64,000 bases of DNA from Candidatus Moraniibacteriota bacterium (GCA_052035095.1 JBPOHW010000007.1:1705-65704), one strand, 5' to 3'; counted from the stretch's first letter, positions 2,233 to 63,012 are shown. Made by a program: numbers and translations. Notes: a model not told the origin generated them from the sequence alone.

Positions 2233-2401
2233 GTAAAACTTTTGTATTCGGATAAGAGAAAGAAATTAACGGAGGGGCGAGCAAACTTACAGAAACCACA
2301 AACGAAAGATTCTTTGGGAGGTTATTTCCATCCAAAACCAACAAGCCTCACCTACCAAGCCCCGGAGCATTTCTTGAACGTTCCGAATACAAAAGTTTTA
2401 C
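2233..2401. repeat. Repeat family 1, copy 1: ~125-nt conserved core (2256..2380) closed by a copy-specific 20-bp perfect inverted repeat (2233..2252 / 2382..2401)
   Basis: Core GAGAAAGAAATTAACGGAGGGGCGAGCA...AAACCACAAACGAAAGNTTCTTTGGGAGGTTATTTC...CTCACCTACCAAGCCCCGGAGCATTTCTTGAACG is shared with copies at 11942, 13603 and 60722. The flanks gtaaaacttttgtattcgga / tccgaatacaaaagttttac are exact reverse complements. Confidence 0.85.
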
Positions 2402-2424: not shown

Positions 2425-3471
2425 TTACTTCTCGGAAGTTTTGTTGCGACGAAATATTCCCCTCCATATTTTGGAAACAAAAGACCAAAGACCGACACAC
2501 AGAAGAAGTGTCACGACACCGACCACGAGCAGAATCTTCCACGGAATAATCCAAAAGTCGACGATGCCCTCGATCGGCACATCGCGCTTTCCGTCATCGT
2601 AGACGAGAAGGAGCTTCGCCTGATATTTTCCAAAACGGAATTTCGACGCCTCCTTCCAATCCCATACGAGCTCTTTCACAATATTTCCCCGTTCATCTCT
2701 CACGCCCTTTCCATCCTCCATCTTCTCGCGATACGCCGGGAACCCTTCTGCCCAAGAAACGGAAAATTCTCGAAATGTATTGGGAAGAATATTTCCTTTT
2801 TCAACATTCACATCAAGAAGCGACAATTCTCTCTCACCCTCGCGTCCGACGAAAATATTGCCGCGCGGCGCGATATGCACCGTCCCGGAATTTTTCACCC
2901 GCACGGTAAACGATGCCGGCAGAAATTCATACCACTTCCTGTCCGCGCGAAACTCAATCACCGTCGCCTCGCGCTTCGCGTTCGGAACCTTTGCCTCAAG
3001 GAGCACCAAGACCGCCGTCCCACCGGTAAGACCCGTCTGCCCATCCTTGGGACGTATCGGATCGCCCGCGCGCGAAAATACCACCGCGTAGTAATAGCCA
3101 AACGACGCCGAACTCGGCACCGTAAACGTTGCCGTCACCGTTTTCCACTCGCCGGGCGCGATTGAAAATTCTTTCTCGGAAAAATTCACCCACGAAAGAA
3201 AATCGTCGCCCGATGCGGGCTCAAGAAGTTGCGGCGCGCCATTCTCGCCATAGGCGCCAAATTTCATAAGATCGATCTTGATACGCTCTTCCGCGCTCCC
3301 GTCATTCTTCACCTTGATCGGCGCCGATACGGTGGTTCCCGGTTCGGTCACAAGATTGATCGGCAAAGGCGATGTCACCAAACGAAACTCGCCCGTCTGC
3401 GCGGACGCAGTACGAGCGCCAAAAAATAAAATGTTCGCAAATATCCCGAAAAGAAAAAAGTATTGCCTCAT
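2425..3471 (-). CDS. Cell-surface protein (signal peptide, C-terminal TM anchor), paralogous architecture to 1291..2223
   Basis: ORF 2425..3567 trimmed to ATG at 3471 (MRQYFFLFGIFANILFFGARTASAQ signal peptide). C-terminal TM (ILLVVGVVTLLLCVGLWSFV) and basic tail. Confidence 0.6.
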   Translation of the reverse strand: MRQYFFLFGIFANILFFGARTASAQTGEFRLVTSPLPINLVTEPGTTVSAPIKVKNDGSAEERIKIDLMKFGAYGENGAPQLLEPASGDDFLSWVNFSEKEFSIAPGEWKTVTATFTVPSSASFGYYYAVVFSRAGDPIRPKDGQTGLTGGTAVLVLLEAKVPNAKREATVIEFRADRKWYEFLPASFTVRVKNSGTVHIAPRGNIFVGREGERELSLLDVNVEKGNILPNTFREFSVSWAEGFPAYREKMEDGKGVRDERGNIVKELVWDWKEASKFRFGKYQAKLLLVYDDGKRDVPIEGIVDFWIIPWKILLVVGVVTLLLCVGLWSFVSKIWRGIFRRNKTSEK

Positions 3472-3573
3472 AGAATTGACCCCAGTGTACACCTTTTTTA
3501 TTCTTTTCGAAAGAGAAAGCAAAAAAGGAGCCCTCAAGAGAGCTCCAAAAAAATCGAGTTCACACAAAAAAAC

Positions 3574-5763: not shown

Positions 5764-5855
5764 ACATCGAGAAATCACAAAAAATTTCACCCCTGAAAAG
5801 ATTTCTGTGTTTGAATCATATCGCATTGCTTCGAGCACCTTTTCATGCACGCCGA

Positions 5856-5929
5856 GACCGCAGAAAATAATTTTTCGAAAGTTTGCTCCGATAGAGAGGA
5901 GCATGTGAGAAAAATTGTTTTCTGCGGTC
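5856..5929 (+). repeat. Repeat family 2, copy A: hairpin with a 21-bp AT-rich stem (one G.U on the plus strand) and a 32-nt conserved loop
   Basis: gaccgcagaaaataatttttc [gaaagtttgctccgatagagaggagcatgtga] gaaaaattgttttctgcggtc, followed by gaggcaac. Near-identical to 53575..53649 (shared loop boxes AGTTTGCTCCGA and GAGGAGCATGTGAG). Confidence 0.8.
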
Positions 5930-6202
5930 GAGGCAACTCTCATAGGACTTCCTCACTTTGATGCAGTTCGAGGAAAAACCGAGCACCGGAACGAGGTGTA
6001 TGAGACATACTCCGAGTGAGGAGCGCAGGTTTTGACGAAGAAATGCGCAAAGTGAGGAAAGCCTATCTCAATAAAACAAAGCCATGTATATCCACACAGA
6101 AAAAAGAAATCCTTTACGCGCAACACAAATAGTATACACCAAAAAAAGAACGACCGCTGAAAAAGCGATCGTTCCACTCCGCCTCCAACATCGCGCTCGC
6201 GT

Positions 6203-11941: not shown

Positions 11942-12113
11942 TTTCAAAACTTCCGCCTGCGACAAAGAGAAAGAAATTAACGGAGGGGCGGGCAGGCCTG
12001 CGAAAACCACAAATGAAAGCTTCTTTGGGAGGTTATTTCTCTCCAGGACACACAATCTCACCTACCAAGCCCCGGAGCATTTCTTGAACGTGTCACAGGC
12101 GAAAGCTTTGAAA
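11942..12113. repeat. Repeat family 1, copy 2: conserved core closed by a 23-bp inverted repeat with 3 mismatches
   Basis: Flanks tttcaaaacttccgcctgcgaca / tgtcacaggcgaaagctttgaaa. All three mismatches are C.A on the plus strand and would be G.U on the minus-strand transcript. Confidence 0.85.
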
Positions 12114-13602: not shown

Positions 13603-13788
13603 CAGGACTTCCACATTTGTCAAACCTGCCTGCCGGTAGGCAGGGGGAGAGAAATCAACGGAGGGGCGGGCAGACTTACAAAAAACGCGAGAGAAAGCTT
13701 CTTTGGGAGGTTATTTACATCCATAACACAAAAACTCACCTACCAAGCCCCGGAGCATTTCTCGAACGTGACAAATGTGGAAGTCCTG
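13603..13788. repeat. Repeat family 1, copy 3: conserved core closed by a 20-bp perfect inverted repeat; carries an extra GC-rich palindrome (13625..13644)
   Basis: Flanks caggacttccacatttgtca / tgacaaatgtggaagtcctg. Internal cctgcctgccggtaggcagg hairpin sits immediately 5' of the core. Confidence 0.85.
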
Positions 13789-31119: not shown

Positions 31120-31412
31120 ACACGTATGCCCGCCCGCAACAAGAGGAAACCGCTATGAAGCAAGCGCAAACGCGAACCGCGCGCGCGAAAAACTTTCTGA
31201 AATACCCCAAACAATGAGAGCAAGAAGACCAAAAAGTATCATAGGAGGAAAATTCTTGTTGAAAACGGGAGAAAAATATATTAACGCTCCGTCCCATCAT
31301 AGAATGTCCCCATCTTTTTGTCAAAGACCCCCCGAAATGATAGGATGGGAGAAAGAAATGCAAAGTTCAAAATGAAAAATGGAAATGAAGTTTTTCTGGA
31401 TTTCATAATTTT

Positions 31413-31454
31413 GAACTTTGAATTTTGAATTTTGAATTTTGAATTTTGAATTTA
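31413..31454. repeat. Heptanucleotide microsatellite (GAATTTT)x4-5 immediately upstream of the gpmI start
   Basis: gaactttgaattttgaattttgaattttgaattttgaattta. Ends about 7 nt before the ATG at 31461. Confidence 0.8.
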
Positions 31455-31460
31455 TACCAT

Positions 31461-41707: not shown

Positions 41708-41723
41708 AATGAGTAGTGAGTAG

Positions 41724-41741
41724 ATAGTAGCGAGTAGATAG
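41724..41741. repeat. Left 18-bp terminal inverted repeat (ATAGTAGCGAGTAGATAG) of the four-helix-bundle cassette; embedded in AGTAGNN heptamer tandem repeats
   Basis: Exact reverse complement at 42229..42246. Region 41711..41741 reads gagtagtgagtagatagtagcgagtagatag. A second arm at 41774..41793 forms a long hairpin with 41719..41738. Confidence 0.8.
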
Positions 41742-41802
41742 AAAATAAAATGTTTTCTACCTACCAAATACTGTCTACTCGTTGCTATCTACTGATAAAT
41801 AC

Positions 41803-42180
41803 CTAAATATTATTCCTGACAGACTTCATTAGGCCGGAGAGAATTTTACTTACCTGTATCGTTTCCTCAGCAAGGGCGTCAAAAATATTTCTTTCAAGAA
41901 ATCCGATATCTCGTGCAATAAGCAGTTGGTTTTGAAGTTCAAAAATAGATCCTCTGGAAATAGCGTAAAATTGAAGTTTTTCTTTGGAAGAGCTCCTGCC
42001 AAATCCCTCTGCAATGTTGGAAGTAATGGAAATAGCACACCGACGTATCTGATTCGTAAGAGAAAAAATTTCCGCCCTCGGAAAAGACTCAGTTGCCCGA
42101 TAGACTGCAAGCACCAATTTGTGCCCTTTCTGCCACACTACCAAATCCGTAAAAGACTGTATTTTTGATATATCGCCCAT
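41803..42180 (-). CDS. Four-helix-bundle protein of the 'S23 ribosomal / rRNA intervening-sequence protein' family (PF05635-like)
   Basis: 125 aa. MGDISKIQSFTDLVVWQKGHKLVLAVYRATESFPRAEIFSLTNQIRRCAISITSNIAEGFGR... Local base composition is more AT-rich than the flanking pilin genes (by eye). Confidence 0.65.
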   Translation of the reverse strand: MGDISKIQSFTDLVVWQKGHKLVLAVYRATESFPRAEIFSLTNQIRRCAISITSNIAEGFGRSSSKEKLQFYAISRGSIFELQNQLLIARDIGFLERNIFDALAEETIQVSKILSGLMKSVRNNI

Positions 42181-42228
42181 ACAACCAAATACTGAAACAC
42201 CGAATGTTCTCTTGCTAGATACTCCCTA

Positions 42229-42246
42229 CTATCTACTCGCTACTAT
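42229..42246. repeat. Right 18-bp terminal inverted repeat (CTATCTACTCGCTACTAT) of the four-helix-bundle cassette
   Basis: Reverse complement of 41724..41741. A 10-bp direct repeat CCAAATACTG (41764..41773 and 42185..42194) flanks the ORF just inside the IRs. Confidence 0.8.
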
Positions 42247-43465: not shown

Positions 43466-43554
43466 ACAATATATTTAAAATAAGCTTTTTTCACTTTAAC
43501 GAAGACCAGCCTACCGGCAGGCAGGAATGCGCGAAGTGAGAAAATCTTAAAAGA

Positions 43555-49949: not shown

Positions 49950-50001
49950 ATCGCTTTTTTATTTTTTGGTACATTGACACCTTCCATTCGAGAAACCACC
50001 C

Positions 50002-50184
50002 GAAAACGTCTGATTTTGAGTGCAGTTCGACCCGCTTCGCCAGAGCTACAGCGAGGCGAGGGAAGATGTGCGGAGTGGAATGAATTGTTTGGGAAACAAT
50101 TCATTGTATGTAAACATACAGCGTCCCCGCCGAGGCGGGGGAGCATCTGATCCCGCCAAGGCGGGACCAAAATCAGACGTTTTC
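50002..50184. repeat. Intergenic hairpin cluster bounded by a 17-bp perfect inverted repeat (GAAAACGTCTGATTTTG / CAAAATCAGACGTTTTC)
   Basis: Contains a 12-bp perfect hairpin aatgaattgtttGGGaaacaattcatt (50079..50105), the dyad tgtatgtaaacataca (50104..50120), and GC hairpins ccccgccGAGgcggggg and tcccgccAAggcggga. Confidence 0.8.
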
Positions 50185-50185
50185 G

Positions 50186-53574: not shown

Positions 53575-53649
53575 ACCGCGAAAAATAATTTTTCTCTAGT
53601 TTGCTCCGAGCCCAATGAGGAGCATGTGAGAAAAATTATTTTTCGCGGT
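53575..53649 (+). repeat. Repeat family 2, copy B: perfect 20-bp AT-rich stem hairpin with 35-nt conserved loop
   Basis: accgcgaaaaataatttttc [tctagtttgctccgagcccaatgaggagcatgtga] gaaaaattatttttcgcggt, then gaggcaac. Located between infB and cca. Confidence 0.8.
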
Positions 53650-55502: not shown

Positions 55503-55647
55503 CTGAAGTGAAACGCAAGGAGTGGGCAAGCACGCCAACCTACCTACCGGCAGGCAGGCTGCTTGGCGTGCGCCTGGGAATCGAAGGGATTTTCCTTAAA
55601 TGGAAAATCCCAGGCTCGAAGAGGATTCCCAGTGCCCCAAAAAAGAT

Positions 55648-60647: not shown

Positions 60648-60721
60648 ACTGTTTCTTTTTGAGGTCAAAAAAACTCACCGCCCCCATGCGGAACTACAAT
60701 AAAGAAAAGCTATAGCAGAAA

Positions 60722-60906
60722 GAAATTCGCGTATTCGGCTAACCTGCCTGCCGGCAAGGCAGGGAGAAAGAAATTAACGAAGGGGCGAGCAAACGTACAA
60801 AAACCACAAACGAAAGCTTCTTTGGGAGGTTATTTCTATCCATAACATACAAACTCACCTACCAAGCCCCGGAGCATTTCTTGAACGTGCCGAATACGCG
60901 AATTTC
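60722..60906. repeat. Repeat family 1, copy 4: conserved core closed by an 18-bp perfect inverted repeat; carries GC-rich palindrome 60743..60763
   Basis: Flanks gaaattcgcgtattcggc / gccgaatacgcgaatttc. Internal cctgcctgccggcaaggcagg. Lies 75 nt upstream (minus-strand sense) of nrdA and just downstream of sodA. Confidence 0.85.
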
Positions 60907-60921
60907 GGACGCCACAGGACA

Positions 60922-61548
60922 TTATGCCTTTTTTTCAACAACACTCCAATCAATCGCCTTGAAAAAGGCTTCAATATAGTCCGCGCGCTTCAATCCGTAG
61001 TCGAGCATAAAGGCATGCTCAAACACATCCATCACGAGAATTGGCATCGCTCCGGAAAGATGTCCGCCATCATGCTCATTGATCCACGTATTGAAAAGCA
61101 TTCCCGTCTGCGGATCTTTGGCAAGAATCACCCACCCGATCCCTCGCATCGTCCCCGTCCCAACAAAATCCTTCCTCCACTTCTCAAAACTCCCGAAAGA
61201 ATTTTCAAGAACCTCCAACATCCGACTCCCAACTCCCGACCCCGCTTTTTCCCCTTTCTCTCCACCTAATTCTTCATTTTTCATTTTTAATTTTTCATTT
61301 CCCTTCATATTCCCAAAGTACAGCTCATGCAACCGCATTCCATTCCATTCCCACCCAAATCGCCGCTTGAGCTCCGCGTATTCCGGCGTCCCCGGCTCTT
61401 TCGTCGCGAGAAGCTCGAGAAGTGTATTCACATTTTTCACATATCCTTCATAGAGCGCAAAATGATTTGTGAGAAGCACATCGCTCATTCCCGGCATTCC
61501 CAAAAGATGCTTAAAATCTTGTATTTCATATTTCATACCGGTTGACAT
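60922..61548 (-). CDS. sodA: Fe/Mn superoxide dismutase with internal low-complexity insert
   Basis: N-terminal HFALYEGYVKNVN (SOD helical domain). C-terminal DVFEHAFMLDYGLKRADYIEAFFKAIDW (D-x-W-E-H signature). Insert KGNEKLKMKNEELGGEKGEKAGSG. Confidence 0.8.
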   Translation of the reverse strand: MSTGMKYEIQDFKHLLGMPGMSDVLLTNHFALYEGYVKNVNTLLELLATKEPGTPEYAELKRRFGWEWNGMRLHELYFGNMKGNEKLKMKNEELGGEKGEKAGSGVGSRMLEVLENSFGSFEKWRKDFVGTGTMRGIGWVILAKDPQTGMLFNTWINEHDGGHLSGAMPILVMDVFEHAFMLDYGLKRADYIEAFFKAIDWSVVEKKA

Positions 61549-62710: not shown

Positions 62711-62738
62711 AGAGTTGTTAAAAAGTTTATCTTACAAA

Positions 62739-62934
62739 TTTATCTTACGCGAAATAATTTACTCTTCTGTCATCCCGACCGGAGCGACCTAAGGAGCGAA
62801 GTGGAGGGATCTGCGTCTTAACAGAAAGGCAGTGCTTCCAGAAAGATTGAGATTCCTCGGCTTCGCTCGGAATGACAGAGTTCTTTTGTTTTGTGGCTTA
62901 AAAAAAAGACTTCTATTATTTCGCGTAAGATAAA
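62739..62934. repeat. Long imperfect palindromic element in the prx/rluD divergent intergenic region; 20-bp perfect outer IR plus ~23-bp imperfect inner IR
   Basis: Outer tttatcttacgcgaaataat (62739..62758) / attatttcgcgtaagataaa (62915..62934). Inner tctgtcatcccgaccggagcgac / tcggcttcgctcggaatgacaga. Adjacent direct repeat tttatcttac x2 (62726, 62739). Confidence 0.75.
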
Positions 62935-63012
62935 TCAAAAATACAAAAGCCGTTTGTATATGATACGTGCCGCATTTCGCGCTGTCAACTTTCCGCTTCC
63001 TTTGCCAAAATA

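Follow-up and report, generated by a model that had tools for sequence, protein, structure and literature searches.

A hairpin-closed intergenic repeat of Candidatus Moraniibacteriota with compensated arms and a fixed orientation relative to replication

Why would a short non-coding element conserve its interior and yet have a closing helix of different sequence in each copy? The question is raised by a repeat at positions 60722 to 60906 of a 64,000-nt stretch of Candidatus Moraniibacteriota DNA (GCA_052035095.1, JBPOHW010000007.1:1705-65704; the whole stretch is called the window below). In the small, tightly packed genomes of the Patescibacteria, an intact 170-bp non-coding element at the same locus needs explanation. 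A sequence-only reading had noticed four copies and had offered two explanations, a structured RNA whose closing helix tolerates any paired sequence, or a mobile core inserted repeatedly into the loops of pre-existing palindromes; neither stands as proposed. The repeat, here called family A, is a real, unannotated, dispersed, non-coding and hairpin-closed element of ~170 bp, found in one clade of Candidatus Moraniibacteriota. The explanation that seems to us most plausible, although we hold it tentatively, is that of an element similar to REPINs or to the miniature transposable elements with inverted repeats (MITEs) derived from IS200/IS605, which acts as a single-stranded DNA (ssDNA) stem-loop at the replication fork, is spread in trans and is kept by selection.

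The four copies lie where the earlier reading had placed them, all on the + strand and all intergenic, and the sharing of the core is confirmed by a 35-nt and an 18-nt core block with exactly four matches each, against 0.00 and 0.16 expected from shuffled sequence. No fifth copy was found in the window by a hidden Markov model or a covariance model. The copies and the parts of the fourth are as follows.

2233..2401, + strand: copy c1, with arms at 2233-2252 and 2382-2401 (20 bp, perfect).
11942..12113, + strand: copy c2, with arms at 11942-11963 and 12092-12113 (22 pairs, three A.C mismatches).
13603..13788, + strand: copy c3, with arms at 13603-13622 and 13769-13788 (20 bp, perfect) and hairpin module 1 at 13625-13645.
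60722..60906, + strand: copy c4, the whole element, between the stop codon of the superoxide dismutase (SOD) gene (60922, - strand) and a terminator-like hairpin followed by the start of the ribonucleotide reductase large-subunit gene.
60722..60739, + strand: 5' arm of closing stem P1 of c4, GAAATTCGCGTATTCGGC, 18/18 complementary to 60889-60906.
60743..60763, + strand: module 1 of c4, an optional GC-rich mini-hairpin, CCTGCCTGCCGGCAAGGCAGG, in the 5' junction.
60768..60774, + strand: 5' strand of helix P2 of c4, AAGAAAT, pairing with 60876-60882 (ATTTCTT); predicted in every copy.
60782..60786, + strand: 5' strand of helix P3 of c4, GGGGC, pairing with 60866-60870 (GCCCC).
60787..60865, + strand: core interior of c4, with conserved blocks AAAG.TTCTTTGGG.GGTTATTTC and C.CCTACCAAG, two variable stretches between them, and no consistent fold.
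60883..60888, + strand: 3' junction of c4, GAACGT, conserved and unpaired, facing the 5' junction (T/A)AAGAGA.
60889..60906, + strand: 3' arm of P1 of c4, GCCGAATACGCGAATTTC, pairing with the 5' arm.

The arms had been called perfect, which is true of c1, c3 and c4 (20, 20 and 18 bp); c2 has three A.C/C.A mismatches among its 22 pairs. The extra length of c3 and c4 is due to the optional GC hairpin of 20-21 nt between the 5' arm and the core.

Beyond the window, an exact 20-mer of the core was scanned in a first sampling against public genome, metagenome and viral collections. The genome collection gave 15 loci in only three metagenome-assembled genomes (MAGs), JAYRSG01 (Ca. Moraniibacteriota), CAZJZN01 and CAYQPQ01, the records of the latter two carrying the label 'uncultured Bdellovibrionales'. 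The metagenomes gave eight true loci and one chance match (L022), which was dropped, and viral contigs gave zero matches in two scans with conserved core blocks. Further loci came from homologs of the DUF4012 protein encoded between c2 and c3, which led to a graded series of Moranbacteria loci. The loci numbered with L below are contigs of these related genomes and metagenomes, and the combined DNA examined amounts to ~335 kb. Public MAG contigs contain 100-base runs of N (L003 5761-5860; L004 2238-2337 and 4140-4239; L014 3107-3206), which do not affect the GC-skew values of these contigs and must be skipped in repeat scans. In total, nhmmer recovered 38 family A copies on 27 contigs of Candidatus Moraniibacteriota genomes and metagenomes. 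In CP064989.1, a complete relative of 1.09 Mb, the 21 kb examined have no family A copy, and the literature gave no specific match to a described Patescibacteria repeat of this type.

Read 5' to 3' on the strand given here, each element begins with an 18-20-nt arm and the conserved unpaired junction (A/T)AAGAGA. Helix P2 (AAGAAAT) follows and is separated by an internal loop from P3 (GGGGC), after which comes an interior of ~80 nt in which two blocks are conserved and two stretches vary. The opposite strands of the helices, P3' (GCCCC) and, after a loop, P2' (ATTTCTT), lead to the junction GAACGT and the second arm. The core of ~125 nt is asymmetric and non-palindromic. Within it, P2 shows one compensated A-U to G-C change, in L005 and c3, and P3 is nearly invariant, a single one of 27 aligned copies (L021, GCGGC) breaking one pair. 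A further inner helix, P5 (TTGG.NGGT / ACC.A.CCAA), was considered and is not established, with 87.5% of cells paired and one pair mostly unpaired.

The closing stem P1 carries the main evidence. Its arms had been described as unrelated in every copy, which is overstated, as 30 copies share the consensus 5'-AAAACTTCCGTATTTGGC-3'; mean pairwise identity is 67% in the arms and 87% in the core. Counted from the inner end over these 30 copies, Watson-Crick pairing is at least 93% at positions 1-17, 87% at position 18, 67% at 19 and 57% at 20, and random from 21 onward. The stem is free of bulges and spans 18-20 bp in nearly every copy, rather than the 18-23 bp first given, with a fuzzy boundary (16 to 22 bp). 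The inner bases of the arms (GGC, TTT) are the most conserved, and the outer positions 14-20 the most variable.

The claim that the closing helix is compensatory holds well. Double substitutions occur at 19 of the 20 P1 pairs, and 94.9% of P1 cells are paired compared to 84.6% in shuffles, none of 500 reaching the observed value; slid controls give 21-51%. Between orthologs (c1/L010, L004/L005, L008/L020b, L013b/L021a and L015/L018) there are at least 12 compensated changes, the last four pairs each having several compensated substitutions and few uncompensated ones. On the + strand, P1 contains 10 G.T pairs and 12-16 A.C mismatches in ~550-600 pairs, with no excess of wobble. P1 pairs by Watson-Crick rules only, and the wobble tolerance expected of RNA is seen on neither strand.

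Does this pairing belong to an RNA? At the gathering threshold of Rfam only six tRNAs pass in the window, and a permissive scan of 60650-60980 gave one chance-level isrO match (16 bits against a gathering score of 42), in agreement with the earlier remark that the core could not be matched to RNase P, 6S, SRP, tmRNA or a known riboswitch. No sigma-70-like promoter or intrinsic terminator was found inside the element. Whole elements fold with z = -5 to -7 owing to P1; cores without arms give z of -2.5 to +0.85, mostly near 0 and no better than shuffled sequence, as RNA or DNA and on both strands, and the predicted interior fold differs from copy to copy. Hints from the inner helices as to the strand are contradictory: columns 96-99/117-120 and U.G variants in P5 favour the - strand, and the GGG.GG/CC.TCC hairpin and a CCGAG variant in L007b favour the + strand. 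With P1 symmetric, strand assignment from wobble pairs was dropped. A structured RNA with a closing helix of any sequence is therefore not supported in that form, given the arm consensus, the lack of a wobble excess and the unstable interior.

A free-standing small RNA gene, that is, a structured non-coding RNA with its own transcription unit, would account for the conserved core, the covariation of P1 and of one P2 pair, and the optional junction stems. It would also fit the failure of a protein-coding reading, which was considered and abandoned because loop indels break every reading frame and the short open reading frames (ORFs) in the - sense shift in length and frame between copies. We nevertheless regard it as very unlikely. 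In addition to the missing Rfam match, promoter and terminator, the missing wobble signal and the unstable interior, nothing is conserved outside the arms, and P2 and P3 are nearly invariant where covariation would be expected. Taken together with the mixed sense of transcription described below, these results favour an intrastrand structure that is not tied to a transcript.

The orientation of the copies points elsewhere. GC skew is negative throughout the window, from -0.08 to -0.22; it is very strong and uniform at about -0.15 across the 64 kb, and ~70% of genes are on the G-rich strand, which places the entire window in a single replichore. The + sense of the element is on the C-rich strand on 27 of 27 contigs (38 copies at ~24 distinct loci, as judged by arm sequence and flanks), and copies that share a contig are always co-oriented. 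For about 24 distinct loci, the chance of a shared polarity is roughly 2^-23. The common orientation of the window copies, noted earlier in spite of genes on both strands, is thus confirmed and proves to be a lock to the replication strand rather than a local accident. The G-rich strand, which carries 68% of the predicted genes, is probably the leading strand, judging from GC skew and gene-strand bias; on a syntenic contig, the genes for ribosomal proteins, NusG and SecE are on the same strand as dnaG.

Transcription does not account for this lock. The genes flanking the element run opposite to it on both sides in 16 cases, in the same sense on both sides in six, divergently in four and convergently in one, and all genes together are opposite to the element in 133 cases and in the same sense in 63. 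The orientation of the element is not predicted by the strand of its flanking genes and is independent of the direction of transcription. Nor do RNA genes of this genome, as a rule, follow the direction of replication, since the tRNA genes of the window are split, three on + and three on -; this counts further against a small RNA gene.

The position of the copies among genes nevertheless leaves room for the stem to play a part in mRNA. The window is an ordinary segment of a Patescibacteria chromosome, with genes for DnaG, ThrRS, ribonucleotide reductase, SOD, AhpC, RNase Y, ClpP, trigger factor, NusA and IF-2, as well as for the CCA-adding enzyme, PBP1 and an AbiE toxin-antitoxin pair, and its copies are spaced 2-47 kb apart among these housekeeping genes. 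Copy c1 has the stop of a - strand gene (2425-3567) on one side and a terminator-like hairpin (2179-2164) on the other; c2 is flanked by the DUF4012 gene and the promoter-like site of tRNA-Gly(CCC), and c3 by the stop codon of DUF4012 and the promoter region of thrS. The stem could accordingly be a cis-acting mRNA structure, such as an RNase III site or a barrier to exonucleases in 3' untranslated regions and intercistronic spacers, like REP, BIME and ERIC, with the polarity left as a fossil of insertion. Where neighbouring genes are co-directional, copies occupy the gap, usually at 10-40 nt from either ORF, and c1, c3 and c4 have a stop codon on one side and the next terminator-like hairpin or U-run on the other. 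The stem reads alike on both RNA senses, and its role would therefore be independent of orientation; selection for pairing is strong, and at 18-20 bp, about two turns of helix, the stem matches an RNase III substrate in size. Against this, wobble pairs show no enrichment relative to A.C mismatches, only one sense of the 125-nt core is conserved although either would be transcribed (16 versus 6), c2 is upstream of the promoter-like site of a tRNA gene and may escape transcription, and an mRNA role alone leaves the complete lock to the replication strand unexplained. We consider a cis-acting mRNA structure possible but doubtful as the full explanation, and such a role may coexist with a function of the element in ssDNA.

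Whether the arms belong to the element or to its target can be read from sites without a copy. Sites that lack the element in L014 and L017 (AhpC locus), in L028 and L030 (c3 locus) and in the window (two sites occupied in L007) have no palindrome and no arm, and a short-loop hairpin with the arm consensus, i.e., arms only, was not found in 335 kb; the arms therefore arrive with the element. They are its own terminal inverted repeats, not target sequence or pre-existing palindromes, and the suggested insertion into palindromes is not borne out. That a mobile core entered the loops of existing palindromes, or that the arms are inverted target duplications, is in our view extremely improbable. 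The precise insertion of hairpin modules at both junctions at the base of P1 does imply that DNA was broken and rejoined there, and the single fragments similar to an arm that L027 carries close to the c2 and c3 sites were the reason for considering an inverted target duplication. However, these fragments are better read as relics of deleted copies, the one on the c2 side is beyond the promoter from c2 and not at a homologous position, more distant empty sites have no such fragments, and the arms share a single consensus; the inverted target duplication was therefore rejected.

An ordinary cut-and-paste MITE, moved by a DDE transposase that recognizes terminal inverted repeats, would be small, intergenic and multi-copy with terminal inverted repeats of ~18-20 bp, as family A is, and a weak DDE_Tnp_1_2 fragment is located 3.9 kb from the decayed copy in L029. 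However, an alignment of 30 copies by the ends of their stems showed neither a consistent direct repeat nor a target motif at the flanks, which have an A-rich background only, with G or A at position +1, and no conservation was found outside the arms. The outermost arm bases are the most variable, the two ends of each copy covary, something that is not predicted if a transposase recognizes the ends, and neither the strict lock to replication nor purifying selection on individual copies is expected. We therefore judge a DDE-moved MITE to be highly doubtful.

Copies come and go at preferred sites. The site between ahpC and the next gene is occupied by family A in JAYRSG01 and by a different repeat, element D, in the window, and is empty in L014 and L017, which suggests an insertion hot spot. 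At the c3 site, L025 has an ortholog without module 1, L029 has a decayed ortholog (five arm mismatches and a broken P3), all that L027 retains is a fragment similar to the outer 5' arm, and the site is empty in L028 and L030. The 3' arm is lost in L007a. Copies c2 and c3 are restricted to the lineage of the window, c2 being found in the window and L025 only, and several intergenic sites hold different repeat families in different genomes. Intergenic hot spots with gain, loss and replacement of copies are thus evident.

Old copies, on the other hand, are kept with unusual fidelity. Third codon positions of genes shared between the window and L017, L010 and L011 are 52-63% identical; despite this, the arms of orthologous elements are 94-100% identical and the cores 87-89%. 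The ortholog of c4 in L017 has identical arms (36/36 nt) and a core that is 87% identical, and c1, which has orthologs in L010 and L025, differs from the former in the arms by one compensated pair only (C-G to T-A). In old orthologs the arms are more conserved than the second codon positions of neighbouring genes. These comparisons, together with the compensated ortholog pairs above, show strong purifying selection on many copies, acting on pairing at individual loci, unlike the neutral decay expected of a dead transposon.

Such conservation raises the possibility that the element serves its host, as a chromosomal ssDNA signal used at the fork in priming, restart or loading (compare sso and ssi), with copies that are useful and mobility that is secondary. 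The replication polarity, the stem covariation by Watson-Crick pairs only, the display of a conserved sequence in a loop and the conservation of old arms beyond second codon positions all fit such a signal. We still think it unlikely, as close relatives gain, lose and decay copies and swap in other families, the sampled part of CP064989.1 has none, the exact 20-mer is confined to three MAGs of the genome collection, DnaG primase is present and leaves no obvious gap to fill, and one copy per 16 kb is too sparse for the priming of Okazaki fragments.

We thus return to the REPIN- or IS200/IS605-MITE-like element that is folded at the fork. Intrastrand structure without a tie to a transcript suggests ssDNA, and the replication lock points to the fork. 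The strand that folds would be the G-rich complement of the sequence given here, i.e., the lagging-strand template. When this template is exposed at the fork, the 18-20-nt arms would pair and present the conserved, largely unstructured core of ~125 nt as a large loop, pinched by the AAGAAAT/ATTTCTT and GGGGC/GCCCC helices; the base of the stem has a conserved 7x7 internal loop. Recognition of this folded form would fall to a single-strand-specific protein that acts in trans, and the element would therefore spread with a fixed polarity and without target-site duplications. On this reading such an enzyme would exist, and some benefit would keep old copies intact.

Several points weigh against this reading. 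Among the 40 Pfam-annotated proteins of the window there is no HUH/Y1 transposase, RAYT or other recombinase, and a phmmer search of six-frame ORFs from ~290 kb (the window and L001-L024) with an IS608 TnpA sequence gave no match, a weak negative; the sampled DNA yielded neither TnpA nor TnpB. Each end of an IS200/IS605 element, or of one of its non-autonomous, MITE-like derivatives (PATEs), has a subterminal hairpin, and a fixed target of 4-5 nt lies 5' of the left end; neither feature is seen in family A, and the ends of family A pair with each other as a full-length closing stem, unlike those of IS200/IS605. Strong conservation at each locus is unexpected of a purely selfish repeat, so a benefit to the host must be added. 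The leading strand is assigned by GC skew and gene-strand bias, the origin and terminus being outside the data. RNAs, too, typically have optional hairpins at junctions and conserved purine-rich internal loops, and single-sided changes in the inner helices fit wobble on either strand depending on the place, such that they do not assign a strand.

The junction hairpins deserve separate mention. Module 1, of 20-21 nt, is inserted precisely after GGC-AAA in the 5' junction of c3, c4, L019, L020b and L021, with a variant in L002a. It behaves as a precise indel, present in L019 and missing from the otherwise identical L015, and missing as well from the orthologs of c3 in L025 and of c4 in L017. Module 2, a different hairpin of ~36 nt, follows TTGAAC in the 3' junction of L007a and of the L029 ortholog of c3. 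Taken together, the GC-rich hairpin modules (CCTGCCTGCCGG.A.GGCAGG and CCGTCCGCATCGCTTGCGCGAAGCG...) are precise insertions at the two unpaired junctions where the family A stem has its base; modules are found at 13625-13645 and 60743-60763 in the window and at L001 92-124, L007 7766-7801 and L029 4793-4828, and the first also occurs free-standing in the window at 43514-43525 (-) and 55547-55558 (-). From their distribution they seem to behave like a miniature mobile or convertible unit.

Other repeats share the intergenic regions with family A. Family B has a 22-26-bp stem and a loop of ~31 nt with an inner stem TGCTCC/GGAGCA followed by TCGAGGCAAC; it occurs in the window at 5851-5934 and 53575-53649 and at L013 2382-2468, L020 2772-2859, L021 6193-6282 and L023 6062-6126, and in every copy found its polarity relative to GC skew is that of family A. 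Family C has a family A-like architecture, arms of 18-19 bp that resemble those of family A (AGGACTTCC.CA.TTTG) and a core starting with TGCAGTTCGA, and shows the same GC-skew polarity. Its copies are at 50001-50185 and 5942-6066 in the window and at L005 7348-7472, with a partial copy at L021 11079-11130; the copy at 50001 contains two CCCGCC-N4-GGCGGG mini-hairpins.

Element D (window 62738-62935), which lies at the exact site of family A in JAYRSG01, has perfect 21-bp arms (ATTTATCTTACGCGAAATAAT) around an unrelated core of 156 nt, and the outer 10 nt of the arm recur in its left flank. At the position that corresponds to the c4 site of the window and L017, L011 has a perfect 28-bp palindrome, GTAGAGACGCAAAATTTTGCGTCTCTAC (1749-1776), directly after the SOD stop codon and unrelated to the family A arms. 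Nearby, just upstream of the ribonucleotide reductase large-subunit gene, the conserved segment GAGG.CAAAAAA...ACCGCCCCCATGCGGAA (window 60670-60700; L011 1824-1860) is common to genomes with or without c4 and is possibly a regulatory site or the SOD terminator. Elsewhere in the window, ~6 tandem copies of the heptamer TTTTGAA (31408-31455) are found beside an 18-bp inverted repeat, upstream of an ORF starting at 31446. Inverted 33-nt repeats of AGTAGATAG/AGTAGCGAG units (41712-42246) surround a 125-aa ORF (41803-42180), which sits between two genes with T4SS-pilin-like domains.

A bolder proposal is that family A and at least two further families of the same polarity form a previously undescribed class of chromosomal elements read at the fork, each an ssDNA stem-loop on the lagging-strand template that is selected by the host, with a core used by a replisome-associated or ssDNA-specific protein and with mobility as only the source of new copies. 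We put this forward as speculation and think it rather improbable. Apart from that proposal, the element is kept intact across lineages in which synonymous sites are nearly saturated, and a compensated stem of Watson-Crick pairs only, a conserved unfolded loop and the replication lock point to a structure that is read on ssDNA. Such a structure would be either a new type of ssDNA-mobilized element or a chromosomal signal used at the fork. There is a practical warning as well: spectacular helix covariation alone is insufficient evidence for an RNA.

How does family A compare to known systems? From a classical DDE MITE, a direct target duplication and conserved outermost bases would be expected, and family A has neither. 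In attC sites, one DNA strand folds, the sequence varies with conserved pairing and a variable centre, and the orientation is relevant to replication. Family A resembles these recombination sites in being defined by a single-strand fold, in its variable sequence with conserved pairing and in its orientation relative to replication. However, attC sites have R''/R' boxes (RYYYAAC / GTTRRRY; AAC...GTT), extrahelical bases and an imperfect stem, and occur in cassette arrays next to intI, whereas the arm consensus of family A does not fit the R boxes, its stem has no bulges and its neighbours are housekeeping genes. Retrons consist of an msr-msd with a1/a2 inverted repeats and an adjacent reverse transcriptase; no such gene is present next to the four window copies, and family A is multi-copy. 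The defining features of classical MITEs, attC sites and retrons are thus absent from family A.

Imperfect palindromes of 100-200 bp make up the ERIC/IRU, BIME/RIP, Correia, BOX and similar families of bacterial repeats; these lie in transcribed intergenic regions, co-transcription is frequent, and some of them influence the stability of mRNA. Family A is like them in size and setting, but they occur in both orientations and have ends that are conserved rather than covarying, and a replication lock and strong purifying selection at each locus are not part of their descriptions. The sso, ssi and Frpo elements are orientation-specific, 150-300 nt long and active only as folded ssDNA, with loop motifs on long stems. 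Family A shares the orientation specificity, the long stem and the conserved loop, although these elements are single-copy and belong to rolling-circle or conjugative replicons; we know of no chromosomal multi-copy equivalent of them, and none of their motifs (RSB, CS-6) was noticed in family A, although no search aimed at these motifs was made.

REPINs persist for long periods. They are hairpin repeats in which compensatory changes preserve the hairpin, and family A agrees with them in being a short, non-coding, intergenic repeat with a long single-strand hairpin, compensatory changes and many copies per genome (PMC3116915). The differences are substantial: REPINs have conserved inverted REP arms and a short variable spacer, whereas family A has fast-evolving arms and a conserved asymmetric core of 125 nt. 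It is a single asymmetric unit without a visible REP head of the GTAG/CGTC type, no RAYT gene was found in the sampled DNA, and REPINs have not been described as having a strict replication polarity. The insertion of IS200/IS605 elements is into the lagging-strand template and is biased in orientation (PMC5027513); family A is like them in its lack of target-site duplications and, as judged by GC skew, in its bias toward the lagging-strand template. On the present comparison, family A appears to lack the defining features of both a REPIN and an IS200/IS605-derived MITE, yet it is these two that it seems to resemble.

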